Of a stretch of DNA of 64,000 nucleotides, positions 7,413-52,496 are shown one piece after another. The stretch's first letter is position 1, and each line of letters starts with the position of its first letter. The notes beneath the pieces are model-generated. The model made no database searches. It was not told the origin of the DNA and was given only the letters and a program-made list of their open reading frames with translations. The DNA is from Actinomycetota bacterium (lineage in GTDB: Bacteria; Actinomycetota; Thermoleophilia; UBA2241), in NCBI GenBank assembly GCA_003132585.1, contig PKYG01000095.1:21931-85930 (forward strand). The letters are read 5' to 3'. The position numbers and the translations under genes are program-made.

Positions 7413-10166
7413 CTACTTGCCGCGCCGCGCCGCCGGCTTCACCGGGCTGCCGGCCTCGACGATCTTGTACCCGGCCAGCTCGGCGATGTCGGGGTAGTGG
7501 CGGACCGCGTTGCGGTCTTTCTCCTTGTCTTCCTCGCTCAGCGTCGCGTACTGCACGAGACAGGGGTGCTGCTTCGCCTCATCGTCCCTGACCAGGCTGT
7601 GCGACCAGCCGTCGCGGTACTTCTGCTCCATCCAGCCGTCGTGCTCGTACTCGGCCAGGAGCTCCATGTTGGCCTCGATCGCGTTGAGCACCTTGGTCCG
7701 AGACATCGTCGACGGGTGGTCCTTGCTCACCACGGCCAGTCCCACGAAGGCCAGCACGCGCGGGATGCGTGCTGCCGCGGCGATGTTGTCGGCCTTCACG
7801 CCGTCGGGCAGCTCTGCGAAGCCCACGTCGTAGGGGATCGACCAGCCCTCCTTGCGGCACAGCTTCCGGTAGAAGTCGTGCACCGCGGGAGCGAGATCAT
7901 CGCTGCTCATCCTGAACGGGCGGTCGCGATCGACCAGCTCCATGAACTCGTCGTAGTCGACTTGGAGCGAGAGCTGGTCCTCGGGTGGCAGAGCCGACCG
8001 CCTGAGGCCTGGCAGGCCGGCGCCGCCGGTGAGTCCCATGATCGTCTCCAGAGATCGCGCCCCGTGCTCGTACGTGCTGATCTCGAGGAAGGCGGTCAGC
8101 AGCCCGCCGTCGATGTCCATCTCATCGCCTTCGGCGGCCCCGACGAACCCGCCGGTGGCCCGCATCAGCAGGGCGCGACGCACGGGGAAGCAGAGATCGC
8201 GCGGATCGTCGTCGTCGACCCACTGTCGCCGATCGGCAGCGTACTTCTGGCGCCGGTTCGGGCCGGCGACATTCAGGTAGCCGTTCAGTCGGCTGGCGAA
8301 GTCGGGGCCCTTCACGAGCTTGAACTTCTCGAACTTCGTGAGGCCCGTCTGCGCCCCTCCAGCGACATCGTCGCCGGCCGCGCCGCTGGCCTTCGGACGT
8401 ATCTCTTCGCGGGGCGAGAAGTTGGCGAAGTCGTAGCTCGTGCCGCCGGCGAAGACGAACACGCACTTGCCGATCGGGTGCGTGACCTGGCCCTCCTGGA
8501 ACTTGCCGTCCTGCATCGGCGCCAGCAGGTACTGCAGCCACATGTACTCGCGCGAGTCGAACTCGTCCCAGAACACGACCGGTGTGGTGCCCCCGAGGAC
8601 CTTGTCGCGCACCTGGTGGAGGGCGCCGATGAGCTCCCCCGGATCGGAGAACTGCGAGAGGTTGAACTCGAGGATGGGCACCTCGTCGCCCAGTACCGTC
8701 TTGGCGATCTGCTTGACGCCGAACGACTTGCCCGAACCGGGGGCGCCGAACACGGCGATCGACAGGGGCTTGGAGGGACGCGGGTTCCTCTCGTAGCCCT
8801 TGATGAGACGCTCGAGACCGCGCAGGCTCTCGATCTCGACGCGATCGACCGCCAGCAGCTTGCTGAACCTGGCGTAGGGGACCTCGTTGACCAGCGCCTT
8901 GGACCCGAACAGGGCCACCCGCCGCGCCATTCCGTAAAGCGGGCGATCGTCGACGCCACTCTGCTCGCCGGAGACGATCGTCCAGTCTGGGGACTTGCCG
9001 ACCGAGACCACCGCCGCCGGGACCTCGGCGATCCGGTAGCGGCTCGACGGCTTGCACAGGTCGGCGACGACCGGAACGGGCGGGAACCCCTGCTTGGCCT
9101 TGTGATCGTCGTCGCCACCGCCCGCCGCACCGTGACCGACGCGCAGGAGCTGGCGCATGGCCGAGAGACCGCGCATGATGCCACCGCCGATGTCGGCCTC
9201 GCCCTCGTCGGCGCCACTGCAGGTGGCCCTGCTCGTGGCGGCGACATCTGACTTGGCCAGCTCGGCGACGATCGCCGCCACCAGGCACGACATGCCGCCC
9301 CACACTTGGCCCTTGACACCCTTGGCCCAGGCTCCTTCGAGGCCGCCGGGATCGAAGACGAGACGATACCGGGACGTGCCGTCGCTGCGCGTGCTGAGCC
9401 ACAGGGCGCCATCGGTGCCCAGGCCGATGATCAAGTGCCGGCACCGCGTGAGGTCAGAGATGCTCTTGTTGAGCGCCAGCTCCTGCAGCAGGTCCTGGGC
9501 GGTGTGCTCCCAGGAGAGTCCCTCGGTGATGCTCACCTCTTCCTGACGCAGATCGGACGCCGACACCACGACGACGAGCTTTTCGCAGAACTGCCGGCAG
9601 GCCCTTCGCCACAGGTCGCCCTGGGCCACAGGAGCGGACGTCTTGAGCACGACCCAGTCCACGGCCGCCGACTTGCCGTCGCGCATCTCCTCGGGCCAAG
9701 CGGATTCGTTTGTGCGGTGGCGAAAGCCGAGCGCGCCGTCGTCGAGCACCACGATCGAAGCGGGCGCGGTCGTGCGCGCCGGCGCGCCGGCATAGCGCGT
9801 GGTGCGCTCGACGCTGTCGCCGTAGCCAAGGTTGCCGGTGACGCGCCAGACGTCACCCTTCCGCTTCTCTCCGGCGGGACAAGGGGTCAGCAGCGAGTAG
9901 GACTGAACTGGTCTGCTCGCCGGCGTGGGGGCCATGCCAAACTCGACCGTGAAGGGCTCGGGTGTGGCGGCGCCAAGCGTCTCGAGGATCTTGAAGAGCA
10001 GCTTGGCGCCGCCGGCCTCCTGGTGGATCGCGGTGCCCTGCATCGCGTGTGCATAGGGTTTGTCGCGCGTGCCCTCGTAGATGTGGTGGTCGACGACGAC
10101 GTCACCGGCGACCACGACGGTCTTGGTGCGAGCCTTTTGCTCGGTGCGAGCTTGCTGCTTGGCCAC
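7413..10166 (-). CDS. Multidomain protein: N-terminal PfkB/ribokinase-like domain (GAGD catalytic motif apparently degenerate), AAA+ ATPase, then C-terminal tandem RyR domains
   Basis: PfkB-like N-terminus VVVAGDVVVD...GGAKLLFKILETLG...LIIGLGTDGALWL. Walker A FGAPGSGKSF, Walker B VVFWDEFD, sensor-1 FVFAGGTS. RyR repeats EHDGWMEQKYRDGW...QHPCLVQYATLSEEDKEKDRNAV. Start chosen at GTG 10164-10166 with a GGGGGAGAG SD. The ORF stays open to 10454, so the true start may be further upstream. Confidence 0.7.
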   Translation of the reverse strand: MAKQQARTEQKARTKTVVVAGDVVVDHHIYEGTRDKPYAHAMQGTAIHQEAGGAKLLFKILETLGAATPEPFTVEFGMAPTPASRPVQSYSLLTPCPAGEKRKGDVWRVTGNLGYGDSVERTTRYAGAPARTTAPASIVVLDDGALGFRHRTNESAWPEEMRDGKSAAVDWVVLKTSAPVAQGDLWRRACRQFCEKLVVVVSASDLRQEEVSITEGLSWEHTAQDLLQELALNKSISDLTRCRHLIIGLGTDGALWLSTRSDGTSRYRLVFDPGGLEGAWAKGVKGQVWGGMSCLVAAIVAELAKSDVAATSRATCSGADEGEADIGGGIMRGLSAMRQLLRVGHGAAGGGDDDHKAKQGFPPVPVVADLCKPSSRYRIAEVPAAVVSVGKSPDWTIVSGEQSGVDDRPLYGMARRVALFGSKALVNEVPYARFSKLLAVDRVEIESLRGLERLIKGYERNPRPSKPLSIAVFGAPGSGKSFGVKQIAKTVLGDEVPILEFNLSQFSDPGELIGALHQVRDKVLGGTTPVVFWDEFDSREYMWLQYLLAPMQDGKFQEGQVTHPIGKCVFVFAGGTSYDFANFSPREEIRPKASGAAGDDVAGGAQTGLTKFEKFKLVKGPDFASRLNGYLNVAGPNRRQKYAADRRQWVDDDDPRDLCFPVRRALLMRATGGFVGAAEGDEMDIDGGLLTAFLEISTYEHGARSLETIMGLTGGAGLPGLRRSALPPEDQLSLQVDYDEFMELVDRDRPFRMSSDDLAPAVHDFYRKLCRKEGWSIPYDVGFAELPDGVKADNIAAAARIPRVLAFVGLAVVSKDHPSTMSRTKVLNAIEANMELLAEYEHDGWMEQKYRDGWSHSLVRDDEAKQHPCLVQYATLSEEDKEKDRNAVRHYPDIAELAGYKIVEAGSPVKPAARRGK

Positions 10167-10420: not shown

Positions 10421-12235
10421 ATGCCCGAGCAGGCACCGCGAACATCGCGGACACTGCCGCTGCGCCCCCGCCCGGTCTGGCGCCGGCGTCTGGCTCGATT
10501 CTGGTTGACCTACCAGTGGCCGATCATCATCGCCGTCTGGGTCTGCTCGATGGTCCTTGGCTACGTCGGGTTCTGGAAGTACTACCAGCAGTTCCCGACC
10601 GAGAAGCCGCACGCGTGGGGCGACCTGATCTACTACACCATGCAGCTCGTGCCCATGATCTCCGGCGCCCTGCCCCACGTGGTGCCTTTCGAACTCGAGG
10701 TGGCGCGCCACGTGCTGCCGATTGTCGAGGGCTACACCGGCATCGTCGCCCTGGTGATCGTCTTCTCCAGCGAGGTGAAGCGGCTGCGCCTGCGCACCCT
10801 GCGCGATCACTTGATCGTCTGCGGTCTGGGAAGCAAGGGCCGGTACCTCGCCCGCCAACTTCGGGAGATGGGGCTGCCGACCGTGGCCGTCGAACGCGAT
10901 CCCGGCAACCCGGCGATCGAGGAATCCCGTGACGAGGGTGTGATCGTGCTGACCGGCGACGCCTCCGACGAGCGGCTCCTGGCGCGTGCCGGTCTGGCGC
11001 GCGCCCGGATGCTCGTCGCAGTCTGCGACGACGACACCAACGCCCGGGTGGTCGCTGCGGTGCGTCATCTGGTCAGAGCCGGGCGCCGCAGCCCGCTGGC
11101 ATGCAGCGTGCACATCGTCGAGCCGCGGCTCTACGAGCTGCTGAGCCAACAGGAGCTGGAGCCCGAGCAGGCCGGTATCCTCCGTCTCGACATGTTCAAC
11201 GTGTTCGACCTTGGCGCACGAGCGATGTTGGCCCAGCATGGGCCCGCGGCGGGCGAAAGCGCCGGTCCCGCGCACATCCTGGTCGCGGGGCTCGGCGGTC
11301 TAGGACGCAGCGTCGTGGTGTGGGCCGCGCGCAACTGGCACCCACGGTTCCGTGCCACCGGCGAGCGCCTGCGCATCTCCGTCGTGGACAGCGACGCGCG
11401 CGTCTGGATCGACGCGCTCTGCGCGCACTACCCGCGCCTCGCGTCTGTGTGCGCGCTGGTCCCCCACGATGTGAGCGTGGACAGTGGCGAGTTCCAGCGA
11501 GGAGCGTTCCTCTTCGACGACGAGGGCCGTAGCGACGTGAGCGTCGCGTTTGTTTGCCATGACGATGACCAGACCAGCGTCGCCGCCGGTCTCTCGCTCG
11601 CGCACAGCCTGCGAGACCAGCAGACGCGCGTCGTCGTGCGCGTTCGCGACGGGGCGGGTCTGGCCGTGCTTCTGCCGGAGGCAGGCAGCGGCGACCCACG
11701 CCTGGCCGCGTTCCCGCTGTACGAGCGCACGTGCACGCCGGAGCTGGTGCTGGGCGGCATGCACGAGTCGCTGGCGCGGATGATCCACGACGAGTACGTG
11801 AGGCATCAGACGGCTCGCGGCGAGACGCCGGCGGTCAACCCGTCGCTGCGCCCGTGGGACGAGCTCCCGCTCGAGCTCCAGGAGGCCAGCCGGACGCAGG
11901 CCGACCACATCGGTGTGAAGCTCGCGGCCGCGGGCTGCGGGCTCGAGCCGATGACGGACTGGGACGCGGACCTCTTCGCGTTCACGCCCGAGGAACTGGA
12001 ACGTCTCTCTGTGATGGAGCACGAGCGCTGGGTCGACGACCACGCGCGCGCGGGCTGGACGCAGGCGACGGGCGCCAAGAACGTGACGAAGAAGACGCAC
12101 CCGTCGATGGTGCCGTGGGACGACCTCTCAGAGCCCGAGCGCGAGAAGGACCGCGAAGCCGTGCGCTCGTTGCCGGTCTTTCTCGCCCGGACGGGCTTTC
12201 AGGTCTACCGGCTGGCGGCTCCGAAGGCCGGATGA
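10421..12235 (+). CDS. Membrane protein with two TrkA-N/RCK (NAD-binding Rossmann) domains and C-terminal tandem RyR domains
   Basis: Two N-terminal TM helices. RCK motifs LIVCGLGSKGRYLARQL and ILVAGLGGLGRSVV. RyR repeats MEHERWVDDHARAGW...HPSMVPWDDLSEPEREKDREAV. GGAGG SD 5 nt before ATG 10421. Confidence 0.75.
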   Translation: MPEQAPRTSRTLPLRPRPVWRRRLARFWLTYQWPIIIAVWVCSMVLGYVGFWKYYQQFPTEKPHAWGDLIYYTMQLVPMISGALPHVVPFELEVARHVLPIVEGYTGIVALVIVFSSEVKRLRLRTLRDHLIVCGLGSKGRYLARQLREMGLPTVAVERDPGNPAIEESRDEGVIVLTGDASDERLLARAGLARARMLVAVCDDDTNARVVAAVRHLVRAGRRSPLACSVHIVEPRLYELLSQQELEPEQAGILRLDMFNVFDLGARAMLAQHGPAAGESAGPAHILVAGLGGLGRSVVVWAARNWHPRFRATGERLRISVVDSDARVWIDALCAHYPRLASVCALVPHDVSVDSGEFQRGAFLFDDEGRSDVSVAFVCHDDDQTSVAAGLSLAHSLRDQQTRVVVRVRDGAGLAVLLPEAGSGDPRLAAFPLYERTCTPELVLGGMHESLARMIHDEYVRHQTARGETPAVNPSLRPWDELPLELQEASRTQADHIGVKLAAAGCGLEPMTDWDADLFAFTPEELERLSVMEHERWVDDHARAGWTQATGAKNVTKKTHPSMVPWDDLSEPEREKDREAVRSLPVFLARTGFQVYRLAAPKAG

Positions 12236-12264: not shown

Positions 12265-13722
12265 TTACAGCACGCGGAAGTACCTCCAGACCGACGTCGT
12301 CTTGGCGTGGTCCGCGTCGGCGTGCACCGCCCGCATCCGCATGCGTCCGGGCGCGCCCAAGCGCCAGCTCGTCATGTACAAGGTGGCCGTAGTCGTGTTG
12401 CGGTATGCCTGGGCGTACTTCGCGTCAATCTGCTTCCACCTGCCGCCCGAATAGCGTTGCAGGAAGACTTCGGTGTGGCTGGTCTTGTTCTGCGCGGTCG
12501 AGTGCATGGGCTTGAGCGTGCCCCAATACGTCTGTGATTTCGTGTTTGGCATCCAGCGTCTCACCAGCGAGGGCACGACCGGCGGTGTGAGGGAGGCGCG
12601 CGACGTGACAGACTTGATGTCGTCGTCGTAAAACAGCGAATCCCAACCGTTTATGTTTGACCACAGGTATTCGCTGTCGCCCCGGAAGACCACCCCGAAC
12701 CAGGTCTTGCGCACGATGTTCACCGAGGTCGAGAATGCGCCTGTCGTACAATCGATGGTACCGCGCGACGAGAAGTTCTTGTTGTCCGTCGATGCGTAGA
12801 GGTCAACGGACCGATTGGTGAGCAAGTTTCCCCACGTGTCGGTCAGCGTGCCCGCGATGGTCACCGGCTTGTTGTAACCGACGACTGCCGGCCCGGCAGT
12901 CATGCTCACATACACAGGGCGCAGCCCAGATTGCACGCTGACCTCGTCCACGTAGGCGCCCTGGCCTGTGTTTGTCGCGTCGCTTACAAAGCGGAAGGCG
13001 ATCCACACCTGGCTTTGGCCACAGACGTTGCCTATCGCGGGGACGTTCGTGAGATCGAAGGCGTCCCTGATAAAGCCCTTTGGCCCCGAATACGACGTAT
13101 AACTGAAGTTGGTGCCGTCCACCGAGACAAGCACCTGGAGTGGGTCGTACTTCTCTTCCGTGTCCACGAACAGGCTGTACCAGAGCGTCGCGCTCGTGAC
13201 GGTCGAGAGATCGAACGGTCCTGCGATCATCCAGGCATTCATGTTGTTGATGTAGGGGCCAGGCGCATCTATCAAGCTCCCCGCGCAGTACGCCGAGTAC
13301 GAGCCGGCGAAGAACGTCCGGTAGTAGCTGGAGGAGAGGTCCCAGGTCGGAGTGCCAAGGCGTGTCCAGTTGCTCATGCCGTTCTCGAACCCGTCGTAGA
13401 AGATCGTGTTACTCCAACCAAACTGGTGCGCGACCGCCGAGGCGGTCGCGGCCGGGTTGAGCACACCCGGCTTCAGTTTCTGGACTCCGCCGCCGCCGCC
13501 CAGGGGCACCAGCTTGAGATGAACCGCAGGCTGTAGTGAGCCGCTCACCACCGGTCTCTTCGTCGGCGCTGGGCCTGCGTACGCGCTCGCTGCGAGCAGC
13601 GCCAGGACGACGAACGACAGTGCGGCAACGCCGCCGGCCCGGAAGAGTGAAACGGCCCGCCGCCGTCGGTGCGTACGATCGCCGGGTGCACGAATCGCGG
13701 GAAGTGTGCGGAATGGGTTCAT
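12265..13722 (-). CDS. Secreted hypothetical protein (486 aa) with an N-terminal signal peptide
   Basis: Signal peptide MNPFRTLPAIRAPGDRTHRRRRAVSLFRAGGVAALSFVVLALLAASAYA. Thr/Ser/Trp/Tyr-rich beta-like composition. The upstream in-frame extension to 14031 looks non-coding. Confidence 0.6.
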   Translation of the reverse strand: MNPFRTLPAIRAPGDRTHRRRRAVSLFRAGGVAALSFVVLALLAASAYAGPAPTKRPVVSGSLQPAVHLKLVPLGGGGGVQKLKPGVLNPAATASAVAHQFGWSNTIFYDGFENGMSNWTRLGTPTWDLSSSYYRTFFAGSYSAYCAGSLIDAPGPYINNMNAWMIAGPFDLSTVTSATLWYSLFVDTEEKYDPLQVLVSVDGTNFSYTSYSGPKGFIRDAFDLTNVPAIGNVCGQSQVWIAFRFVSDATNTGQGAYVDEVSVQSGLRPVYVSMTAGPAVVGYNKPVTIAGTLTDTWGNLLTNRSVDLYASTDNKNFSSRGTIDCTTGAFSTSVNIVRKTWFGVVFRGDSEYLWSNINGWDSLFYDDDIKSVTSRASLTPPVVPSLVRRWMPNTKSQTYWGTLKPMHSTAQNKTSHTEVFLQRYSGGRWKQIDAKYAQAYRNTTTATLYMTSWRLGAPGRMRMRAVHADADHAKTTSVWRYFRVL

Positions 13723-14046: not shown

Positions 14047-14460
14047 GTGGCCACAACGGACACACTACCGGGTTCACCGCTGACGAGGAGAGCGTTTCTG
14101 CTGACCTCCCTCGGCGCTTTGCTCGCCCTGGTGGCCGGTCGCCGCTGGAGCGAGGCGAGCCACCGAGTCACGAACCGGGACGCGGCACGGCCGCGACGCG
14201 CCGACAACCTCAGGGAAGAAGCTTACGGCACGGGGCTCGCACTGCGACCGACGCCGGTCGATCCCCGAGGACCGGTCTTTCGGCTGAACGAACCGGCGGC
14301 GCTCATCTGGCGCAACATCGACGGGCGGCGCACGATCGACGACCTCGCCGCCCTCCTCGTTGGTCGATATGGCGTCGCGCAGGCGAGGGCGAGGGCCGAC
14401 ACACGGGCCTGCCTCCAGGCCTTCTCGGGGGCGGGTCTCGCGTTCGGTCTCGACGGGTAA
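14047..14460 (+). CDS. PqqD-family (RiPP recognition element-like) protein with an unusual 60-aa N-terminal extension carrying a Tat-like motif
   Basis: PqqD core PVFRLNEPAALIWRNIDGRRTIDDLAALLVGRYGV...ADTRACLQAFSGAGL. N-terminus SPLTRRAFLLTSLGALLALVAG resembles a twin-arginine signal or membrane anchor. Confidence 0.6.
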   Translation: MATTDTLPGSPLTRRAFLLTSLGALLALVAGRRWSEASHRVTNRDAARPRRADNLREEAYGTGLALRPTPVDPRGPVFRLNEPAALIWRNIDGRRTIDDLAALLVGRYGVAQARARADTRACLQAFSGAGLAFGLDG

Positions 14461-14485: not shown

Positions 14486-15904
14486 GTGACCAGATACCAG
14501 CTCGCCACGGAGATCTTCTCGCTGCCGCGAGGGCGCGAGCACATCGTCTACGCGCCCCTGCAGCGCACCAGCCTGCTGGTCAACGACGCCGCCCTCAACC
14601 TGCTGGCCGACATCGCCGCCGAACGCAGCCTGCCACGCGACAGCCGCACGCGCGAGGTGCTCGACCTGCTGCTCGAGCTGGAGCTCATCGGGCCGAAGAG
14701 CGGCCGGCGGGGGGCCGGCCCGACAGGGCCGACCCGGCAGCCGGACGCTGCAACGCCGCATGAGCGCCCTGCAGCCGACGTCACACCGATCCCCCTTCGC
14801 CCTACGGCCTGCACGCTCTTTCTGACCACGGCCTGCAATCTGCGCTGCCTCTACTGCTATGCGTCCGGCGGCGACCGGCCACGTCATCTCGACGAGCGGG
14901 TCGCGCGCGACGCCATCGACTTCATCGTGAGCAACGCCGTCGAGAGCGAGGTCGGCGAGGTCACGGTCGCGTTCCACGGCGGCGGCGAACCGACGCTGGC
15001 CGGTGAGACGCTCGTGCACTGCGTCGAGCACGCTCGCCGGAGATGCCGGGAGCACGGCCTGGAGCTCTCCACCGGTGTCGCGACCAACGGTGTGATGGGC
15101 GACGGCATGCGCGACTATCTGGCGGACACCATGACCTCGGTCATGGTGTCGGTCGACGGGCCGGCGGCTGTGCAGGACCGCCTGCGGCCGCAGGCCAACG
15201 GCGGTCCTTCTTCGGCCGCCGTCGAGCGCACACTCGAGCGCCTTTCGGCGGGCGCCTGCTCCGTCGGCGCCCGCCTCACCTGCACGTCGGACACGATCGA
15301 GCACGTGCCGGCGGCCGTGCGCCACCTGGCCGCCGACTACAAGCTCGCGACGATCCACCTCGAGCCGCTGTTCGCCTGCGGCCGCTCGCTCCATCATGAC
15401 CTACAGCCGCCGAGCGCCGACCGCTTCGTCGAGACTTTTCGCCGCTGCCGGGCGCTCGCCGCCGAGCACGGCGTGACGGTGGTCTACTCGGGCGCCAGAC
15501 AGCCGTCGCTGGCGCACGCCTTCTGCCAGGCCAGTGCCCCAAGCTTCAATGTGACGAGCGACGGTGACATCACTGCCTGCTACGAGGTCACCGGCCGTGA
15601 CGATCCCCGGGCCGAGACGTTCATCTATGGCGCCTACGACCCTGCGCAACGCGCGTTCGCCTTCGACGACGCGCGCATCGCCGCGCTGCGGCGCCTGACC
15701 GTCGACGATGCCCCGCGCTGCGCGCTCTGTTTCTGCAAGTACCACTGCGCGGGCGACTGCGCGTCGAAACGCCTCTATCCGGGCGGAGAAGAGTCCGTCA
15801 TCGCACGCTGCCAGATCAACCGGCGCCTCACACGGGACCAGCTCGAGGACGCCCTCATGGGTACACCTGTGCCCGCCGGCGTGGAAGCTCTGACGAAAGG
15901 CTGA
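14486..15904 (+). CDS. Radical SAM / SPASM-domain peptide-modifying enzyme with its own N-terminal RRE-like region
   Basis: CNLRCLYCY (CxxxCxxC). C-terminal SPASM cysteines CALCFCKYHCAGDC. N-terminal YQLATEIFSLPRGREHIVYAPLQRTSLLVNDAALNLLADI is PqqD-like. Confidence 0.85.
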   Translation: MTRYQLATEIFSLPRGREHIVYAPLQRTSLLVNDAALNLLADIAAERSLPRDSRTREVLDLLLELELIGPKSGRRGAGPTGPTRQPDAATPHERPAADVTPIPLRPTACTLFLTTACNLRCLYCYASGGDRPRHLDERVARDAIDFIVSNAVESEVGEVTVAFHGGGEPTLAGETLVHCVEHARRRCREHGLELSTGVATNGVMGDGMRDYLADTMTSVMVSVDGPAAVQDRLRPQANGGPSSAAVERTLERLSAGACSVGARLTCTSDTIEHVPAAVRHLAADYKLATIHLEPLFACGRSLHHDLQPPSADRFVETFRRCRALAAEHGVTVVYSGARQPSLAHAFCQASAPSFNVTSDGDITACYEVTGRDDPRAETFIYGAYDPAQRAFAFDDARIAALRRLTVDDAPRCALCFCKYHCAGDCASKRLYPGGEESVIARCQINRRLTRDQLEDALMGTPVPAGVEALTKG

Positions 15905-15908
15905 TCGG

Positions 15909-16466
15909 GTGTCCGACCAAGACCAGATAGACCAGGTGGCGAACGCGGGCGGAGCGTACCAGCCTCCCGAACTCGCGATCGGCGAGAGCGCTTCTGTAGT
16001 CGCATGGGCCGGTGAACTCTTCGCCGATAGTTCGCCCAACGACACACCGACGAGCATACCGATGACAAGCGCGGCGCCCGAGGTATTGCGCTGGAGCGTC
16101 CCCCAACCCGAGTACGACTACCCCGACCCCGAGCTGTTCGTCGCGCCCCAGAATCCCAGCCGCAGGCTGTCCGGACCAAAGACGCCAGCGAAGCAGACGC
16201 ACAAGGCCGGCCACAAGACGGTCGCCCATGCGACCAAGACCAGGCTCACCGGCCACGATGCCTTCGGGGGCTCCCTGTGCACGTGCAACACCGTCTGCAC
16301 CTGCAATGTCGTGTGCACCTGCGAGTCCGTCGCCACCTGCAGTTGCGTCTCGCACACGCCGACCGGCGGCGGCGGGACCACGCCGCCCCCGCCCCCGCCC
16401 CCGCCGTCGTGCACCTGCAACCCGAACTGCTCTTGCCAGGGCTACACGCCCTGTCCTTCGGTGTAG
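15909..16466 (+). CDS. Cys-rich repeat protein (185 aa) with an acidic N-terminal region, CTCN/CTC repeats and a PPPPPPPP tract. Candidate substrate of the adjacent rSAM/SPASM enzyme.
   Basis: GTG 4 nt after the rSAM stop, with a GAAAGG SD. C-terminal sequence SLCTCNTVCTCNVVCTCESVATCSCVSH...PPPPPPPPSCTCNPNCSCQGYTPCPSV. Confidence 0.55.
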   Translation: MSDQDQIDQVANAGGAYQPPELAIGESASVVAWAGELFADSSPNDTPTSIPMTSAAPEVLRWSVPQPEYDYPDPELFVAPQNPSRRLSGPKTPAKQTHKAGHKTVAHATKTRLTGHDAFGGSLCTCNTVCTCNVVCTCESVATCSCVSHTPTGGGGTTPPPPPPPPSCTCNPNCSCQGYTPCPSV

Positions 16467-16472: not shown

Positions 16473-17714
16473 ATGGTCGGTACAACCATGTCGAAGACAC
16501 TCTCGCCGCGATCGATCATCATCGTTCTGGCGTGTGCCGGCATGCTCATGGCCGCGGCCGGGCCCGCCGTGGCGGCAACGGAACATCCATACAATCTCGG
16601 CTGCAAAGCGCTCGCCGCGGGAGACGTGGCGAAAGCGAAGGTCCTCTTCGCGGAGGCTATCAAGCTCGACCCGACCGACACGGACGCCCTCAACAACCTT
16701 GCCGTCTGCTACATGATGACGAACGACTACGGCAAGGCGCTGCCGCTCCTGCAGAAGGTCCTGCGTCTCAACAAGCGATACCGGGGGGCCGACCTCAACC
16801 TCGGGGCCGCCTACATGTTCCAGGCCAGCCCGTCCGATGCGGCGGCGGCGGCGGCGCGGGCGAGCGCCGCCGGTTCGAATGCGGTCGGCAAGCGCGTCAA
16901 GGCGGCCGCCTATCTCAACCTCGGGCTGGTCGCCGCCCAGCAAGGTCGCCTGGACGATGCGAAGACGGCCTTCCTGCAATCGGCGGCGACCGCGCCCAGT
17001 GCGCAGGCCGAGATCGCCCTCGCCTGCGCGTACTGTGCTCTCGGGGACTTCGGGCAAGGCTTCCCGATTTTCGAGAAGCTGGCACAGCCCGGGGCCAACG
17101 CCAAGATCGCCCAGTTGGCAAGCAGCGACCTGGCCGTCGCCTACTTCCAGCGCGGGATGGCGAGGCTGGAGAGACGGGACCTCGACGCCGCCAGGAGCGA
17201 CTTCGTCCAGTCGACCGAGATCGCGGCGAACGACTACGCCAAGTTGGGTCTGGCGCTGATCGACGCCGAGCGAGGGAACCTTCGCGCCGCCGCCACCGCG
17301 CTCGCCGAGATCAGGGACTCGGACGCCTCGCCGCAACTGCGGAGCGCGGCAGTCGAGAACCTCAAACGCTTGAAGGCGATGGCCGAGGGCGACAGCCGGT
17401 GGCTCAAATTACTGATCCTTGTCGGCGGCGGGGTCCTCTTCGCCTGGCAGTACTACTCACTCATGCACGCCGTCCGCGCGCGGCCCCATCGCGGAACGCT
17501 CGGCGCGTTGCAGGTCGTGCTCGGCAGCGTAGTCGGCATCGGGGTCGGCGTCTTCCTTGCCTTGGCCTACGTCGACCCGTTCCGCAGTCCGCTCTGGGTC
17601 TTGCCGGTGGCTGCCGTCGACGCCGTCGTGGTCGTGTTGATGTGGCTTGGCGCGACCGCGAGTTCCCGGGTCGGGCGCCGCGAGTCGCCGACCGAGGTCA
17701 GCGCAGCGAGGTAA
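16473..17714 (+). CDS. Tetratricopeptide-repeat protein with an N-terminal signal peptide and C-terminal TM helices
   Basis: TPR-like repeats (ALNNLAVCYMMTNDYGKALPLLQKVL, AAYLNLGLVAAQQGRLDDAKTAF). C-terminal hydrophobic helices. The start may be ATG 16488 (MSKTL). Confidence 0.65.
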   Translation: MVGTTMSKTLSPRSIIIVLACAGMLMAAAGPAVAATEHPYNLGCKALAAGDVAKAKVLFAEAIKLDPTDTDALNNLAVCYMMTNDYGKALPLLQKVLRLNKRYRGADLNLGAAYMFQASPSDAAAAAARASAAGSNAVGKRVKAAAYLNLGLVAAQQGRLDDAKTAFLQSAATAPSAQAEIALACAYCALGDFGQGFPIFEKLAQPGANAKIAQLASSDLAVAYFQRGMARLERRDLDAARSDFVQSTEIAANDYAKLGLALIDAERGNLRAAATALAEIRDSDASPQLRSAAVENLKRLKAMAEGDSRWLKLLILVGGGVLFAWQYYSLMHAVRARPHRGTLGALQVVLGSVVGIGVGVFLALAYVDPFRSPLWVLPVAAVDAVVVVLMWLGATASSRVGRRESPTEVSAAR

Positions 17715-17738
17715 CGCGCAGGCTCACGCCTGCGCAGG

Positions 17739-18554
17739 CTATCGGGTCACCAAGCCGACGACGATGAGGATGATGACCCACGCCGCCCCGACGCCGACCG
17801 CAACCGCGAACGTCTTGGGGTGGCGAGGAAGCCGCAGCAGCTTCGCGGATGTCGCCGGCGTGTACGCCGCCTCCCCCCCGATCTGGCCAGACGAGACTGC
17901 GACAGCCGCGGCGGGGGTGGCAGGCACGGCCATCTGCTGAGGCTTGGGCGCAGCGGGCTTGGGTGGTGGAGAAGGTTTGGGCGCAGGCGTGCGCGCCGGC
18001 GCCGGCGCAGCCGACTGCGTGTCGACGGGGGGCGCTGTCGGACTTGTGTGCGCGGGGGGCGGGGCCGGAGGTGTGTCCGCTGGCTCCGCCGGTCTCTGCG
18101 TCCGATCGTCTGTCCGCCCCTCCTCGGGCAGCGGCGGCGCCTCGGTCGTCGTCGGCTCGAGCAGGACCGCGATCGCCTCGCAGAGCCGAGCGAGATGGCG
18201 CTCGAGGGGCAGCGTCAGGGCATCGAGCCAGTGCTGGCCGGCGAGGTAGTACTCGAGCCAGTCACTGGGCACTACATCCTCGACACGCAGCGGCAGGATC
18301 GGCAGCGCGCACGAGACGGCCCGGTCGACCTCGCGCTGGACCTGGACGGAGGCGTTCGAGGCCGCCGAGAAGACAAGGACGAAGACGCGCGCCGAGTGGA
18401 TGGCTTCGATGATCATCTGCGCGAAGTTGTGGCCCGGCAGGACGTCGCGAGGAGCGATCCAGCAACGGATGTGCTGGCGTTCGAGCGCTGCGCAGACTGC
18501 GTCGCCGATCGCCTTGTTGTCCGACGCGTAGCTGATGAACACATCGTGCGCCAA
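17739..18554 (-). CDS. TIR-domain protein with a Pro-rich linker and a C-terminal TM anchor
   Basis: TIR_2-like N-terminus DVFISYASDNKAIGDAVCAALERQHIRCWIAPRDVLPGHNF...VFVLVFSAASNASVQVQREVDRAV. C-terminal FAVAVGVGAAWVIILIVVGLV. Confidence 0.7.
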   Translation of the reverse strand: MAHDVFISYASDNKAIGDAVCAALERQHIRCWIAPRDVLPGHNFAQMIIEAIHSARVFVLVFSAASNASVQVQREVDRAVSCALPILPLRVEDVVPSDWLEYYLAGQHWLDALTLPLERHLARLCEAIAVLLEPTTTEAPPLPEEGRTDDRTQRPAEPADTPPAPPPAHTSPTAPPVDTQSAAPAPARTPAPKPSPPPKPAAPKPQQMAVPATPAAAVAVSSGQIGGEAAYTPATSAKLLRLPRHPKTFAVAVGVGAAWVIILIVVGLVTR

Positions 18555-18635
18555 GCCATGCCCCCTCGAAGAACCGATGCACGCCTGCAGCCGGTGGGCT
18601 GAGAGCTTAACGCATCCTACACCCCGTGGCGGAGA

Positions 18636-18664
18636 GTGACCTGCACCCCTGAAATCGGTCCACC
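18636..18664. repeat. 29-bp motif GTGACCTGCACCCCTGAAATCGGTCCACC, also at 61402-61430 with a partial copy at 61378-61399
   Basis: Seen directly. Both sit in the 5' regions of minus-strand genes (TIR gene; GH2 gene). Confidence 0.5.
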
Positions 18665-18753
18665 TTCAATGTAAGGTTTCGCGACCGACCAAGGAAGGAA
18701 GGCTGGCCACAGCCACGCCGAGGTTGCTCGCCCTCCACCACCACCTGGCGCCG

Positions 18754-21340: not shown

Positions 21341-21499
21341 GTCCCCAATTCGCCGTCCCACCCCGGTGGTACACTCCAATCATCACTTGTCGCCACACAT
21401 GGCGGCACGCGGGATTTGAAGAGCAGCTTGCAGCCGCGTCACCAACTGCTAAAGCGCCACGGGTTCGCCCGTGGCACCATTCTCTGAAAGGAGAGCGCC
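21341..21499 (+). repeat. Conserved about 155-bp leader element, copy 1 (about 96% identical to 25181-25337), containing the hairpin GCCACGGG-TTCG-CCCGTGGC and an SD
   Basis: Direct nucleotide comparison of the two copies. The hairpin differs by a compensatory C to U (G-U wobble) in copy 2. Confidence 0.6.
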
Positions 21500-21664: not shown

Positions 21665-21841
21665 TTCCCGGAGGGGCGTCGGCGGTCGGCAAGAAGCTCA
21701 AGATCGAGCTGGACTAGCAGCCGGCCCCTTGACTGTATGTCAAATGTGACATACGCTTCCACCCGTGGGGAGACCTCCCGACAAACCGCTCGTCTGACTG
21801 CGCGGCTACGATGCGCTCGCAAGCGAGAAGGAGTGACCAGC

Positions 21842-22159
21842 ATGGAGAAAGCCAAGAAGGATCGCCTCAAGTCGGCCGGCTGGCGCGTGGGTGACGCGAC
21901 CGAGTTCCTCGAGCTGAGCGCCGAGGAGGCCGCCTTCGTCGAACTGAAGCTGGCGCTCGCCGACTACCTGCGCGAGATCCGCGTACGCAACGAATGGACT
22001 CAGTCCCAGGTGGCTCGCCGACTGGGATCGAGCCAGTCACGAGTCGCGAAGATGGAGGCGGCAGACGCCTCGGTGTCGCTCGATCTCATGGTGAAGTCGC
22101 TGCTCATTCTGGGTGTGTCTCGCAGCGAGGTCGGACGCGTGATCGCCAAGGCGGCGTAG
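21842..22159 (+). CDS. XRE-family HTH transcriptional regulator (antitoxin-like, 105 aa)
   Basis: HTH NEWTQSQVARRLGSSQSRVAKME. AAGGAG SD. The ORF track extends to 21737, but ATG 21842 has the SD. Confidence 0.7.
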   Translation: MEKAKKDRLKSAGWRVGDATEFLELSAEEAAFVELKLALADYLREIRVRNEWTQSQVARRLGSSQSRVAKMEAADASVSLDLMVKSLLILGVSRSEVGRVIAKAA

Positions 22160-22175: not shown

Positions 22176-23585
22176 CTACGCTGGTGCGCCCGGATCCGCG
22201 CTGTCCGTGTGCACCCACACCGTGTGCTTGGCCGCCATCGCGCTCGCCAGTCTGCGCAGGTCGTCAGGCCAGGCGTGGCCGCCGCTGTGGATGAAGTGCG
22301 GTTCGAGACCATGGCGCTTGGCCCATGTGCGCGTCGCGCACCGCTCGCGCGACCAGTACCCGCTCCACATCGACCAGACGAGATCGACCTTCTCCGGCCC
22401 GACCTTGTCGAACACCTTGGTCACGCCGAAGCTGCCGCGACAGCACATGAGATAGCGTCCGGGGTCGGCGGCGAGCTCGTCGCTGGATACCTTGCCCGCG
22501 TCACGCATCTCGATGACGAGGTCCATCTTGCCGGCCTGCTTGAGCAGCTCGACCTGATGAGGCGCGAACAGCACGCGGACCCCGTCCCACGTGAACTGAG
22601 GGATGTTCTTCGACAGAGGCGCCAGCTTCATGAGCACATATGCCTGGTAGGGGTCGATGACGAGCAGGCGATTGCTTCGCTTCGCCGCGCGATAACACGA
22701 GACGAGGCGGTCGACGTTCTGGCCCGACGCCACAACCGCGACGAGCTTCCCCTCCGCGGCGACGAGCTTCCCCTCCGCGGCGAGCTTCGCGCCCTCCGAT
22801 CGCGCCAGCTCGACCAGCTTCTCCTCGACGTCCGCCTCACGACCCAGCCCATGCGTCTCGCCGGATGAGCCCAGCGTCGTGCCCTCGATCAGGAGCCAGT
22901 CGACCCCGCGCAGGCGCTCGTCACTGAGCATGTTCGCGAAGCGGAACCCCGTGCGCCCGTGAGCGCGCAGGTCCCCCGTGTAGAGCAGGCGCTGCCCATC
23001 GGCTTCGATGAGCAGCGCGCGCGAATCCGGCGCCGCGTGGTCGACCGGGATCGCGGTCACCGAGAGGCCCCCGAACCGCAGCGTCTCATCCAACGGCAAC
23101 CGCCGCAGGTCTGCCGGCAGCGCGGAGGCGGGGAAGAACACGCGTCCCACCTCGAGCACCGCGATCGTCCCCTCGCTCCCGTACACCGGGATCGCCGGAT
23201 GCGCATGGTGGGCGAGGCCGTAGTGGTCGAGATGCGAGTGCGTGAGGATGATCGCCGCGACAGCGGGCGCAGTGGGGTCGTGTGGGAACACGCCGGGTAT
23301 GTCGCGCAGGACTCCCTCGGCGATCAGGTCTGCCGTCGGCCGTTGCGGGGTGTCCCACGGGAAGTCACCGCCGCCCGGCGCGGTGAGCGGCATGCCGAGA
23401 TCGAGGAGGATGCGTGTGCCGTCGTCGGCATCGACCTCGATGCACATGCCACCGATCTCATGCTGGCCGCGGTGAATGATGTAGTGCGTGGTGAGCGCCC
23501 CTTGGTGGTTGATGTCAGACCCCAGAAACAGAGTAGCACGGGGGTCTGACGGAGACGGGACGCCGCGGTGCCTGCCCCGGGGCAC
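22176..23585 (-). CDS. MBL-fold metallo-hydrolase, beta-CASP-like (RNA/DNA-processing type)
   Basis: HxHxDH motif THSHLDHYG. Further His/Asp motifs (VDHAAPDS, C-terminal HSGGHAWPDD). In-frame 21-nt tandem duplication (GKLVAAEGKLVA). Start codon uncertain. Confidence 0.7.
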   Translation of the reverse strand: MPRGRHRGVPSPSDPRATLFLGSDINHQGALTTHYIIHRGQHEIGGMCIEVDADDGTRILLDLGMPLTAPGGGDFPWDTPQRPTADLIAEGVLRDIPGVFPHDPTAPAVAAIILTHSHLDHYGLAHHAHPAIPVYGSEGTIAVLEVGRVFFPASALPADLRRLPLDETLRFGGLSVTAIPVDHAAPDSRALLIEADGQRLLYTGDLRAHGRTGFRFANMLSDERLRGVDWLLIEGTTLGSSGETHGLGREADVEEKLVELARSEGAKLAAEGKLVAAEGKLVAVVASGQNVDRLVSCYRAAKRSNRLLVIDPYQAYVLMKLAPLSKNIPQFTWDGVRVLFAPHQVELLKQAGKMDLVIEMRDAGKVSSDELAADPGRYLMCCRGSFGVTKVFDKVGPEKVDLVWSMWSGYWSRERCATRTWAKRHGLEPHFIHSGGHAWPDDLRRLASAMAAKHTVWVHTDSADPGAPA

Positions 23586-23588: not shown

Positions 23589-24635
23589 TCAGGGTAGCTT
23601 CGCGATGAACTCGTCGAGCGGGATGACCTTGTCTGCAAACAGCGCGTAGCCGGCAAACGAGACCGTCGCGACGCTGTAGTCGGCATGTTCACGGAGAGGC
23701 AGCTCCCGCTTCGCGAGTTCCTCGAGTTCGTTCTTCAAGCGCTTCGAAGACGGCTGGTGGTTCGCGAGAACGAAGAGCACCTCCGGTCGCTCACTCACGT
23801 CGTCCTTGGTAATCGTCACGCGCTCCGTCATCCTCTTGGGCAGAGACGGGAGTTTCAGACGTTTCTTGGTCTCGAACATCGCCGCAAGCTCCTGGCGCAG
23901 GAGGTCGAACGGCTTCGAGATCTTCTCACCGGGTTCGGGCGTGAGGAAACGCTCGAAATCGAGCACATGCTTCACCAATCCCGGCGATAGGTCGTCGGGC
24001 TTCTCGCCTTTGCGGCTTGAGGTGATGGCGCCGTCTCCCGCCTTCATCTCCATGATGACCGGGGTCACCTTGCTGTTCGCCCTGCTTCCGCCTGCGACGG
24101 GCCAACGAAACCCGACCATGTCGAAGCGGTAGCCAGTCTCGGTTCTCTGCCCGGGAATGGCATATGCGGACTGAACGTATTCCACGTCGATGACAACGTA
24201 GTCGAAGAGTTCGCCGGTGGAATGGCGATTGTTGTCTCGGACGACTGCCTGCTGGTACTCCTTCTCGATCTTGGTGTTCTCGGAGAACCGGATGTCCATC
24301 GCCTGCTTGATGGCGGCAAAGGCATCGACCCACTCCTGAGCGTTCGCTTCACGCTCAATGGACCCTCTGGGTAGCGACGGCGGCTCGGGGCGGTATCCTT
24401 TAGCGCCGTCGAAGTAGTGCTTGTCGAACTCGGCTGAGAACTTCGTGGCTTCGGCGTTGGATTTGATGCCCAGGAGCCGGCCGCCGCGGTAGTAGAGGTC
24501 TACGTAGCCGTTACGGATTTCCAGGCTGAGCGTGTCGTCATGCCGCACTCGATCGAGGAACGGCAAAAGAACTCCCGACTTGAGCTGTTCCACGAAGACG
24601 TCTGAGATTTCACGCTTAGGACTCTTGTCGACCAT
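23589..24635 (-). CDS. Hypothetical protein (349 aa) with a putative PD-(D/E)xK nuclease-like core. First gene of a two-gene operon with the MBL hydrolase (4-nt gap).
   Basis: Candidate motif ...YRFDMVGFRW...VTPVIMEMKAG (D...ExK). GGGGGGA SD. GC about 58% against about 69% in flanking DNA. Confidence 0.55.
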   Translation of the reverse strand: MVDKSPKREISDVFVEQLKSGVLLPFLDRVRHDDTLSLEIRNGYVDLYYRGGRLLGIKSNAEATKFSAEFDKHYFDGAKGYRPEPPSLPRGSIEREANAQEWVDAFAAIKQAMDIRFSENTKIEKEYQQAVVRDNNRHSTGELFDYVVIDVEYVQSAYAIPGQRTETGYRFDMVGFRWPVAGGSRANSKVTPVIMEMKAGDGAITSSRKGEKPDDLSPGLVKHVLDFERFLTPEPGEKISKPFDLLRQELAAMFETKKRLKLPSLPKRMTERVTITKDDVSERPEVLFVLANHQPSSKRLKNELEELAKRELPLREHADYSVATVSFAGYALFADKVIPLDEFIAKLP

Positions 24636-24757
24636 GTCATCCCCCCATCTCGATATGGTTTGGAGTATATGCGGGTATGGCCTTGCGGGCTGAAGGAGCG
24701 CAGTTCGTGGTCGCGGGGTTCGCACAACTTCAACGCGTGAGACAAGGAGCGTAACGG

Positions 24758-26221: not shown

Positions 26222-28072
26222 TTGAGTCTGGGGGGCCTGTTGGCAGCCACACTCTTCAAGGAAGTCAGCTACACACTCTCCAAGCTCATCGAAGACATCG
26301 ACATGGGCGAGATTGGCCTTCCCGAAATCCAACGGCCGTTCATCTGGAAGAACTCCAAGGTGCGCGATCTCTTCGATTCCATGTACCGAGGCTTCCCCGT
26401 GGGCTACCTTCTGTTCTGGCAGAGCATCGCGAACGGTTACAAGCAGATCGGCCAGGGCGAGAAGCAGAAGTACCCGCGCCTGCTCATCGTCGACGGGCAG
26501 CAGCGTCTCACTTCGTTGTTCGCCGTTCTCAAGTGTGCACCGGTTCTCCGCGATGACTACCGCGCCGAGCGTATCCGCATCGCCTTTCGGCCTAAGGATG
26601 TGACCTTCGAGGTCACCGATGCCGCTATCGAGAAGGACGCCGAGTTTCTGCCAGACATCAGCTCTCTCTGGTCTAAGGAGAGCGGCCGAAAAAAGACAGT
26701 GACCGCGTTCTTCACCCGACTCCGCGAACGTCGCGAGTTGTCGCCCGACGAAGAGGAGCAGCTCGAGGAAGCCATCGACCGCGTTTACGATTTGCAGCAC
26801 TATCCGTTCACAGCTTTGGAGCTCTCGGGCACCGTTGGCGAAGAGGAAGTCGCTGACGTCTTTGTGCGGATCAACAGCAAGGGAATGACGCTCAACCAGG
26901 CGGACTTCATCCTCACGCTGATGTCCGTCTTCTGGGATGAGGGCCGCAAGGAGCTGGAAACCTTCTGCCGCGCGGCTCGAACACCAACCAGTGGCGCGGC
27001 GTCTTCCTTCAACTACTTCATCCAACCGGATCCAGACCAACTCCTTCGTGTGAGCGTCGCACTGGGGTTCCGCAGAGCGCGGCTCCAGTACGTTTATTCG
27101 CTGCTCCGCGGAAAAGATCTGGAGACCGGCGAGTTCTCGGACGACCGACGGGACGAGCAGTTCAAGGTGCTGCAGCAGGCGCAGAGCTACGCACTCAAAT
27201 GTCAGAACTGGCACGAGTTCTTCAAGGCGATCATGACCGCCGGCTACAGGAGCGGCGGCATGGTCTCTTCCGAGATCGGCCTCCTGTACGCCTATGCGCT
27301 CTACCTCATCGGGCTGCGCGATTTCCACGTCGACCACTTCGAGCTGCGGCAGGTCATCGCTCGCTGGTACTTCATGACCGCGGTGACTGGACGTTACAGC
27401 TCAAGTCCAGAGACCACCATGGATCAGGACCTGGCGCGACTGCGCGAAGCACATGGCGCCAGAGGGTTCGTCGAGGCGTTGGACGCCATGATCGCCGAGC
27501 GTTTCACCGAGGATTTCTGGACCCTCAATCTGCCGCGCGACCTGGCCACGTCTGCCTCGCGCGGACCCACACTGTTTGGCTACTACGCCGCTCTGAACCT
27601 AGTTGGGGCCAAGGTCCTGTTCTCACAGATGACGGTGCACGAGCTTCTGGACCCCAGCACCGCAGCGAACAAGGCTGCGCTCGAGCGTCACCATCTCTTT
27701 CCCAAGGGCTATCTCCGCACCATGGGCATCACAGACACGCGCGAGACGAACCAGGTCGCCAACTTCGCCCTGGTCGAGTGGGCCGACAACATCGGTATCT
27801 CAGACACGGCCCCAGTCGACTATTTCTCCGGTTACGCCGGGCGATTCCCCAACGACGAGCTGCGCTCCATGATGTACTGGCATGCGCTCCCGGAGGACTG
27901 GGTCCACATGACATACGCTGACTTTCTGGCGGCCCGCCGTGAGGGCATCGCGCTCGTCATGCGCGACGGCTTCGCGCGCCTGAAAGGCGGTAAGGGCGTC
28001 AATGCCGATTCTGCGCCGACATCGTCCGCTGCACCCTCGGAGCAAGCGGAGACAGCGGCGTTCGAGATCTAA
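26222..28072 (+). CDS. GmrSD-family type IV (modification-dependent) restriction endonuclease-like protein, DUF262 + DUF1524
   Basis: DUF262 motifs EIQRPFIW and [15 protein letters not shown]-terminal DUF1524 His-Me finger region [12 protein letters not shown]...[13 protein letters not shown] start; see finding on the alternative ATG at 26182. Confidence 0.8.
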
Positions 28073-52402: not shown

Positions 52403-52496
52403 GGCTTCCGCCCAGCGCGGCGGTCTGGAACGCCTCGCTGTACGTTCGGTCTTCCAGCTCTAGCTCCCCGTCTGGGCCGTCCTCGTCCCGCTAGCC

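Follow-up and report, generated by a model that had tools for sequence, protein, structure and literature searches.

A tail-anchored TIR protein in a conserved neighbourhood with an exported TPR protein and a radical SAM cluster in Actinomycetota, with RyR-domain proteins as candidate partners

The stretch of DNA analysed here, referred to as the window, comprises 64,000 nucleotides of an Actinomycetota bacterium (GTDB lineage Thermoleophilia; UBA2241) and corresponds to positions 21,931 to 85,930 of contig PKYG01000095.1 (GenBank assembly GCA_003132585.1). Its minus strand encodes a membrane-anchored protein with an N-terminal TIR domain (Table 1). The gene for this protein runs towards that of an exported TPR protein, the last gene of a plus-strand cluster that also encodes a PqqD-like protein, a radical SAM (rSAM) enzyme and a Cys-rich protein. 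Two genes for proteins with a C-terminal RyR (ryanodine receptor) domain lie on the far side of this cluster. Comparison of related loci showed that the TIR gene and the TPR/rSAM cluster stand together in a conserved neighbourhood, with the TIR gene as a constant component, and the RyR proteins are candidate receptors of a signal that the TIR domain may produce.

The product of the TIR gene is a member of the TIR superfamily with its flavodoxin-like fold, an assignment made based on Pfam, AlphaFold2 and Foldseek. Residues 5–113 matched TIR_2 (PF13676) with an E-value of 6.8e-21 and 75 bits against a cut-off of 28, and the AlphaFold2 model, for which an alignment of 120 relatives served as input, had predicted local distance difference test (pLDDT) values above 90 over residues 1–130. 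The top Foldseek matches in the PDB were all TIR domains, namely those of Hydra TRR-2, AbTir, SARM1, MyD88 and the SPARTA TIR-APAZ protein, with target-normalised template modelling scores of approximately 0.8 for the top structures. The domain is followed by a linker rich in Pro (26%), Ala (20%) and Thr (12%; residues 133–245, 113 aa), which was modelled with low confidence and without secondary structure (residues ~135–245), and by a hydrophobic helix at residues ~248–270, with its hydrophobic maximum at residues 251–269 (Kyte-Doolittle 2.83) and the AlphaFold2 helix at residues 256–270. Pfam, AlphaFold2, Foldseek and hydropathy bore out the succession of TIR domain, Pro/Ala linker and single C-terminal transmembrane (TM) helix that a first-pass annotation of the window had read from the letters, and the gap of 24 bp that it gave between the TIR and TPR stops was also correct (17739 vs. 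17714). Its linker length of about 80 aa was an underestimate (Table 1). A Shine-Dalgarno-like run, GAGGGGG, was located 8 nt 5' of the TTG start codon, and a scan of positions 17600–18800 for sigma-70 promoters and terminators found none. An identical protein is encoded on 8 public contigs; paralogues of the TIR gene were sought in the window and none were found.

Since RLPRHPK precedes the tail helix and Arg271 alone follows it, with the positive charges on the N-terminal side, the protein should, by the positive-inside rule, be an N-in tail anchor with a cytoplasmic TIR domain. A single TM segment within about 30 residues of the C-terminus, the lack of a signal peptide and positive charge on the N-terminal side of the helix were found here and likewise in all 23 orthologues. 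The tail consensus ALIAAAVVGxxWxxVLxAVELLxR, ending directly at the stop codon, was kept in all 23 complete orthologues, including those with a fused kinase, and the conserved orthologue tail reads ...KPGRRPALIAAAVVGASWLVVLIAVELLVR before the stop. The TM tail was far better conserved than the linker, the length and sequence of which varied strongly among orthologues (the portion C-terminal to the TIR domain ranged from 119 to 460 residues). In close orthologues (50–85% identity), the TIR domains were 70–78% identical.

Loci of the cluster were gathered via the Cys-rich protein, from the contigs encoding it and by a metagenome scan, and those with at least 0.7 kb of contig beyond the TPR gene were taken as informative (n = 24). 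A convergent TIR-linker-TM gene stood beside the TPR gene in 23 of them. On four independent contigs the TIR gene was convergent with the exported TPR gene, which followed PqqD, rSAM/SPASM and a Cys-rich gene of ~190 aa, and on the annotated contigs L005, L007 and L008 the TIR and TPR stop codons overlapped by 4 nt. Adjacency and convergent overlap were retained down to ~47–53% identity (L125). The 5' flank of the TIR gene differed by locus and held an M29 peptidase, LysM/LexA, HerA or DUF3592. A Hanks-type Ser/Thr kinase, apparently intact (HRDxKPxN), was fused before the TIR-linker-TM portion in 8 of the 23 loci, with the same tail. The lone exception among the 24, a distant cluster with 42% identity (L132), had genes for a response regulator of the LuxR type and for a PAS histidine kinase where the TIR gene would be expected (9705–12029 of that locus). 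The module looks vertically inherited, and the description of the TIR gene in the first-pass annotation as stand-alone, with no adjacent partner, does not stand beside the count of 23 out of 24 and the presence of RyR genes nearby.

Table 1. Features of the TIR locus, numbered from the first nucleotide of the window.
Feature	Position	Strand	Basis and remarks
TIR-linker-tail-anchor protein	17739..18554	(-)	271 aa; TTG start; Pfam TIR_2
TIR domain	18150..18554	(-)	Residues 1–135; AlphaFold2, Foldseek, conserved residues
Pro/Ala/Thr-rich disordered linker	17820..18149	(-)	Residues 136–245, ~110 aa
Tail-anchor TM helix and terminal Arg271	17742..17819	(-)	Residues 246–270; hydropathy, AlphaFold2
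Exported TPR protein with signal peptide and C-terminal 3-TM anchor	16488..17714	(+)	Pfam TPR families; convergent with TIR gene
185-aa Cys-rich protein, probable rSAM substrate	15909..16466	(+)	CTC[DN]xVCTCNxVCTCExVAxCxC
Radical SAM/SPASM peptide-maturase-like enzyme	14486..15904	(+)	Pfam Radical_SAM, Fer4_12
PqqD-like recognition element protein for peptides that are ribosomally synthesised and modified after translation (RiPPs)	14047..14460	(+)	Pfam PqqD, E = 6e-13
Secreted or membrane-anchored MAM-domain protein	12265..13722	(-)	Weak InhA-like_MAM match; N-terminal hydrophobic segment; divergent from PqqD gene
2TM channel-like protein with tandem RCK (TrkA_N) and C-terminal RyR domains	10421..12235	(+)	Pfam TrkA_N, RyR
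Large AAA+ ATPase-like protein with C-terminal RyR domain	7413..10166	(-)	Pfam RyR, E = 1e-15, weak AAA; divergent from channel-like gene
Repeated motif	18634..18688	(+)	TIR/M29-peptidase intergenic region, 80–134 nt 5' of the TIR start codon

The TIR domain belongs to a very large, uncharacterised subfamily marked by the motif RCW-IAPRD-x-PG, an invariant Glu and HWLDA. With clustering at 50% identity, at least 3,645 representatives were recovered under a limit of E ≤ 1e-30, a number that rose to 12,859 under E ≤ 1e-10, and at least 595 matches in GTDB species representatives spanned many phyla. The C-terminal modules of its members were diverse and included Sel1, ankyrin, TPR, kinase and FHA domains and beta-propellers. 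The subfamily is probably "group 14", described as the largest bacterial TIR group and unstudied (Toshchakov and Neuwald, 2020; PMC7075850). The caveat attached to the first-pass annotation, that the protein might prove a common family in related genomes, was in part borne out: relatives carry it in the same syntenic position, and the subfamily is very common in environmental bacteria.

Glu75 (codon 18330–18332) was invariant in both of two alignments, one with 21 and one with 120 relatives (120/120 in the latter). It is the conserved Glu in helix alpha-C that is expected of a catalytic TIR domain, and its aligned counterpart in both PdTIR (QKELD) and the oyster TIR-STING protein is the canonical Glu. 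The BB loop comprises A34-P35-R36-D37..P40-G41, and C21, C31, A34–D37, H108, W109 and D111 were also invariant among the 120 relatives. The catalytic Glu and the BB loop, the absence of which had been named beforehand as the result that would overturn the first-pass annotation, are thus both present. The conserved Glu75 suggests NADase or cyclase activity for the TIR domain.

The TPR protein has hydrophobic segments at residues 15–33, ~311–330, 348–366 and 374–392. Orthologues of it are conserved. Its N-terminus is signal-peptide-like (…AGPAVA/ATEHPY), and the basic loops on the predicted inner side suggest that the TPR domain lies outside the cell. The Cys-rich protein, encoded directly after the rSAM/SPASM gene, consists of a conserved N-terminal portion of ~120 aa and a C-terminal core of Cys repeats (consensus in Table 1); searches of Pfam and NCBIfam gave no match for it. 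Just 24 clusters of this protein occurred in a collection of 5.8 billion proteins, all with the same gene order. It may be a RiPP-like substrate of unusual length or may bind metals in the manner of a metallothionein. For the rSAM enzyme, the nearest NCBIfam models were the PapB-type (124 vs. a cut-off of 340) and nif11-type maturases, and the scores were below every curated cut-off. Of the gene types expected in a ranthipeptide/sactipeptide-type RiPP cluster (PqqD-type recognition element, rSAM/SPASM enzyme and Cys-rich precursor), all three are represented and in order, but the maturase scores below the cut-offs and the "precursor" has 185 aa. The MAM gene was found in every related locus reaching far enough upstream of PqqD, and in the window both RyR genes are located directly beyond it.

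The AlphaFold2 model of the TrkA_N-RyR protein (pLDDT 91, predicted template modelling score 0.86) contained a pair of long TM helices with a short, pore-helix-like one between them, Rossmann (RCK) domains in tandem and, at the C-terminus, a helical RyR module. In the PDB it best matched the GsuK channel (NAD and ADP entries), TrkA gating rings and MthK, and the best match of the RyR C-terminus was Repeat12 of human RyR3 (entries with ATP, ADP or AMP-PCP). According to a 2026 preprint (PMC13232231), phage proteins with a RyR domain (PF02026) have nanomolar affinity for 2' and 3' cyclic ADP-ribose (2'cADPR and 3'cADPR), both of which are hydrolysed by one of these proteins via H75 and D117. The RyR domain of the window carries HERW...HP...DR (pattern HExW...HP...DR), the spacing of which appears to match H75/W78/H100/D117 of that phage protein, RyDEP. 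The longest open reading frames of the AAA-RyR (7413–10454) and TrkA_N-RyR (10379–12235) genes overlap at their 5' ends, and the starts in the public annotation (10166 and 10421) leave a divergent promoter region of 254 nt.

The association of TIR and RyR genes extended beyond the rSAM cluster. A comparison set of 80 loci of the TIR subfamily from other phyla was assembled, and neighbours within 10 kb were counted. None of the 80 had rSAM or Cys-rich genes, and 27 had a TrkA_N-RyR, AAA-RyR or SLOG-like gene. Tight operons were seen in an Anaerolineae locus (L088; AAA-RyR, SLOG-like, TrkA_N-RyR, TIR-ConA-like) and in a Bacteroidales locus (L045; TIR-TPR, outer membrane protein, AAA-RyR, SLOG-like, TrkA_N-RyR), and AAA-RyR homologues adjoined TIR genes in L014, L018, L043, L045, L088 and L118. 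The SLOG-like family (~210 aa; GVTGHR...AEGADR...GKGGTGD) occurred in 18 of the 80 loci, often between AAA-RyR and TrkA_N-RyR; copies were located at 7496–8122 in L088 and 7596–8243 in L045, further copies were present in L007, L008 and L118, which are loci of the rSAM cluster, and the window has none. The label "SLOG-like" is given with low certainty, based on weak DprA/ShosA matches and motifs. Sequence searches of the PDB with the N-terminal 390 aa of AAA-RyR and with the SLOG-like protein gave nothing useful. Among the loci of the cluster itself, TrkA_N-RyR was present in all eight TIR-only loci with upstream sequence, and in a reverse check a related TIR gene was found within 3 kb in two of four TrkA_N-RyR loci on long contigs. 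Because the TrkA_N-RyR family is rare (107 clusters recovered), chance co-location of the two genes at this rate is implausible, as judged from raw counts. In one of the two loci of the reverse check that had a TIR gene (L144, 6676–12943), a genuine K+ channel with a TTVGYGD filter was fused to a RyR domain; its gene had TrkA_N-RyR and TIR-STAND (AAA_16) genes beside it and was surrounded by DUF4062/NACHT genes.

For the TIR protein, PADLOC returned 21-bit domain-level matches (SAVED_TIR, PDC-S66) and no system model; the RyR proteins gave no significant PADLOC match, the weakest listed being mad8 (E = 0.006). PADLOC and NCBIfam together gave no system-level match for the TIR, RyR and SLOG-like proteins, and no SLOG or Macro gene was found in the window. 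The Thoeris-like antiphage role put forward in the first-pass annotation received no direct support, the PADLOC matches being weak and at the domain level. A GmrSD-like gene (26222..28072, plus strand) and the type I restriction-modification gene hsdM (28075..29721, plus strand) form a defence island that begins ~7.7 kb from the start of the TIR gene, on a flank that was not conserved in orthologous TIR loci. Some relatives of the TIR gene sit among STAND/NACHT genes (e.g., L144).

A repeated motif lies upstream of the TIR gene, with GAGTGACCTGCACCCCTGAAATCGGTCCACC at 18634–18664 on the plus strand within it. A second site (61367–61454) consists of two tandem partial copies and is likewise located upstream of a minus-strand gene. 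The recurrence of a 29-bp motif noted in the first pass was real, since an exact 19-mer of it occurs twice vs. 0.01 chance matches expected; its placement was not, as the motif is intergenic, 5' of the open reading frame rather than inside it, and species-specific. Each copy, read by eye from the sequence, has the form TGACC-N14/15-GGTCC. In a search of all collected loci, the motif was confined to same-species contigs (L001–L004) and absent from orthologous loci, and it was rejected as a conserved regulatory element of the TIR family for being found in same-species contigs alone. Rfam gave no match for it, either at gathering thresholds over the whole window or in E-value mode over 18540–18770, nor did a tRNA scan, and no sigma-70-like promoter was found near it. 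We regard the motif as a species-specific intergenic repeat outside the TIR system, possibly an operator.

The window contains further repeats. Direct repeats of ~290 nt (89–97% identity; 21343–21628 and 25181–25635) bracket a 3.8-kb segment with genes for an XRE-type helix-turn-helix protein (21737..22159, plus strand), a metallo-beta-lactamase-fold protein (22176..23585, minus strand) and an unknown protein of 378 aa (23589..24725, minus strand). This segment had no tRNA or Rfam match and may have arisen by insertion of an element or by duplication in place. Two paralogous genes for PD40 beta-propeller, lipoprotein-like products (20274–21320 and 51323–52402) shared 76–79% nucleotide identity over several blocks. 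Long direct repeats were also located at 47590–47801 and 49207–49418 (97%) and at 42002–42089 and 52490–52577 (92%).

The reading that we prefer, to which we give a little less than an even chance, is that the membrane-bound TIR protein makes a signal for the RyR proteins to read, its lineage-specific input being the TPR/rSAM module. In the Thermoleophilia-like lineage, the membrane-associated gene module in which the TIR gene has its fixed place comprises an AAA-RyR or SLOG-like protein, the GsuK-like 2TM-RCK-RyR protein, the MAM protein, the PqqD, rSAM/SPASM and Cys-rich proteins, the TPR-3TM protein and the convergent TIR-TM protein. The TIR domain, on its long and flexible Pro/Ala tether, would be positioned, and probably activated by clustering, through the conserved TM helix of the protein touching the TM bundle of the TPR protein, an arrangement that may be likened to a split receptor that senses outside the cell and keeps its TIR domain inside. 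Once active, it would cleave NAD+ at Glu75 and yield an ADP-ribose-derived signal. Both the channel-like and the AAA protein would read this signal via their RyR domains and respond with a change in ion flux or with some other output. Lineage-specific input or accessory parts may be provided by the Cys-rich protein, once modified by the rSAM enzyme, and by the MAM protein. The biological role could be phage defence, kin or cell-envelope sensing, or physiology. A bolder form of this reading likely overreaches. It would see here a split Toll-like receptor, with an exported TPR sensor and a tail-anchored TIR or kinase-TIR protein, the NAD+-derived product of which gates RyR channels and AAA+ proteins; this would be a prokaryotic counterpart of the cADPR-ryanodine receptor axis, with RyR as a new class of TIR-signal receptor across many phyla.

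Several observations weigh against a TIR-made signal read by RyR proteins. Catalytic TIR domains carry an aromatic residue, usually Trp, four residues ahead of the Glu (SxWxxxE). The TIR protein has Gln (Q71) in this place, which is also the consensus of the subfamily; W109 of the invariant HWLDA motif could substitute for the active-site Trp. Many TIR domains with a conserved Glu, for example those of Toll-like receptors, are scaffolds and not enzymes. In the window, 5.5–11 kb and the rSAM cluster separate the RyR genes from the TIR gene. The filter region of the channel-like protein is TMQLVPMISGA, not TVGYG, and its ion selectivity or conduction is therefore uncertain. The RyR domains could also degrade or sequester the signal instead of sensing it. 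In other phyla, 53 of the 80 loci lacked a RyR or SLOG-like gene within 10 kb, and among cluster loci of the kinase-TIR form with upstream sequence only one of five had TrkA_N-RyR, with one other keeping a 51-aa remnant. The cluster encodes no leader peptidase or exporter that could serve the Cys-rich protein.

Some of these points would be accommodated by a non-catalytic TIR scaffold of the TLR/MyD88 type under a membrane receptor with the TPR protein, its output passing through the fused kinase or recruited partners with no nucleotide signal. The Gln in place of the canonical active-site Trp is in line with such a scaffold, as are the apparently intact kinase fused to the TIR-linker-TM portion in 8 of 23 loci, the scarcity of RyR channel-like genes in kinase-TIR loci and the two-component pair standing in for the TIR gene in L132. 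The best PDB sequence and fold matches also include the TIR domains of a Toll-related receptor and MyD88, and the BB loop is TLR-like (RDxxPG). The likeness to the folds of the NADases AbTir, SARM1 and SPARTA, however, is equally good; invariance of Glu75 in all 120 relatives is hard to explain for a pure scaffold, and the subfamily recurs beside nucleotide-binding RyR and SLOG-like genes. We consider the scaffold unlikely. Somewhat less likely still is that killing or arrest by the TIR protein is the output of a RiPP-based module, of the self/non-self or quorum type, in which the rSAM-modified Cys-rich peptide is released and sensed outside by the TPR protein, the TIR domain depletes NAD+, and the RyR proteins are unrelated. 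The strict co-occurrence of the PqqD, rSAM, Cys-rich, TPR-3TM and TIR-TM genes and the predicted extracytoplasmic TPR domain would fit such a module, and FxSxx-COOH systems provide a precedent for rSAM/SPASM peptides coupled to TIR (PMC7159879). It is opposed by the size of the Cys-rich protein (185 aa), which has no signal peptide, and by a cluster without protease or exporter. The RyR/SLOG-like association, moreover, persists in phyla without the rSAM cluster, so that the RyR neighbours are unlikely to be irrelevant.

A stand-alone NAD+-depleting abortive-infection effector, or a Thoeris-like ThsB, unrelated to the rSAM cluster was the view of the first-pass annotation. It draws on the TIR domain with its catalytic Glu, the weak PADLOC/NCBIfam matches to TIR domains of defence proteins, the GmrSD/type I restriction-modification island and the relatives among STAND/NACHT genes. 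No defence model was recognised beyond the TIR domain itself, however, and the position relative to the TPR/rSAM cluster is the fixed one, whereas the flank facing the island is not conserved; the syntenic pattern across orthologues of 50–85% identity is vertical and not patchy as in an island. We hold this view to be improbable. That the TIR gene was inherited beside the cluster by mere happenstance, without a functional link, would agree with all cluster loci coming from one fairly narrow clade (the 24 Cys-rich clusters). Against this, the linkage survived divergence to ~47–53% identity (L125) and the gain of a kinase while the opposite flank was reshuffled, and the TM tail is under strong sequence constraint, which makes happenstance very improbable.

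The preferred reading, a TIR-made signal received by RyR proteins, provides genomic context and a testable partner set for the largest bacterial TIR group (probably "group 14"). If it is true, RyR channels and AAA+ proteins would be cellular receptors of TIR-made nucleotides, which would extend the 2026 finding on viral RyR proteins and cADPR and bear on the long-debated link between cADPR and the ryanodine receptor. The tail-anchored TIR protein, the exported TPR-TM protein and the rSAM-modified Cys-rich protein would in that case form a new route of signal input to a TIR domain. If the protein is instead a scaffold or an ordinary abortive-infection NADase, the result is a modest new architecture. 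Literature searches on TIR proteins with rSAM/PqqD, on tail-anchored or proline-rich bacterial TIR proteins, on PF13676 with RiPPs and on RyR with SLOG gave no account of the arrangement seen here.

In Thoeris-type signalling, a ThsB TIR protein is combined with an effector carrying a signal-binding domain (SLOG, Macro), and a recent survey gives 29 putative types (Yirmiya et al., 2025; bioRxiv 10.64898/2025.12.03.692087). The association of a TIR domain bearing the catalytic Glu with nucleotide-binding domains of sensor type (RyR, SLOG-like, RCK), some of them in membrane channels, resembles this organisation. In contrast to Thoeris, the TIR domain described here is an N-terminal TIR_2 domain (RCWIAPRD/HWLDA) and not ThsB/DUF1863-like, the protein is tail-anchored, and its gene and those of the candidate effectors do not form a two-gene operon in the window; the candidate effectors carry RyR domains, which go unmentioned in the available text and supplements of the survey (Yirmiya et al., 2025). 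An identity with type X Thoeris ("ion channel") was weighed and dismissed, since its TIR domains are DUF1863-like and the available part of the survey makes no mention of RyR or TrkA. The phage RyDEP proteins (Lopez Rivera et al., 2026; PMC13232231) share the family PF02026 and the HxxW...H...D pattern kept here. They are small proteins of viral origin and act against defence by sequestering or cleaving 2'/3'cADPR, whereas the RyR domain here forms the C-terminal part of channel-like and AAA+ proteins of the cell, for which reason a sensor role is proposed. With the RCK-gated K+ channels GsuK and MthK, the channel-like protein has in common the two TM helices, the pore-helix-like segment and the tandem RCK domains; it differs in the additional C-terminal RyR domain and in the absence of a TVGYG filter.

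In outline, the locus also resembles animal Toll-like receptors, with extracytoplasmic repeats, a TM segment and a cytoplasmic TIR domain with an RDxxPG BB loop, and the animal cADPR-ryanodine receptor axis, with a TIR-family enzyme near channels that have RyR Repeat12-like domains, where the functional link would be of the kind proposed above. Unlike in Toll-like receptors, the sensor and the TIR domain are on two polypeptides and the repeats are TPR, not leucine-rich repeats; the comparison implies homology for the TIR and RyR domains only. The nearest precedent in which rSAM-modified peptides are coupled to TIR proteins is the actinobacterial FxSxx-COOH/VMAP system (Kaur, Burroughs, Iyer and Aravind, 2020; PMC7159879, section 24), where an rSAM/SPASM enzyme and a substrate protein that is small or variable are likewise coupled to a TIR-domain protein and TPR repeats in Actinomycetota. 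The rSAM enzyme of the window is not FxsB (65 bits vs. a cut-off of 370 for TIGR04269), and the Cys-rich protein ends in ...CPSV, without FxSxx. In place of a system with a zincin peptidase, AP-ATPase/STAND and vWA-MoxR, none of which is present here, the locus has a tail-anchored TIR protein without an NTPase domain and a TPR protein that is exported and membrane-anchored.

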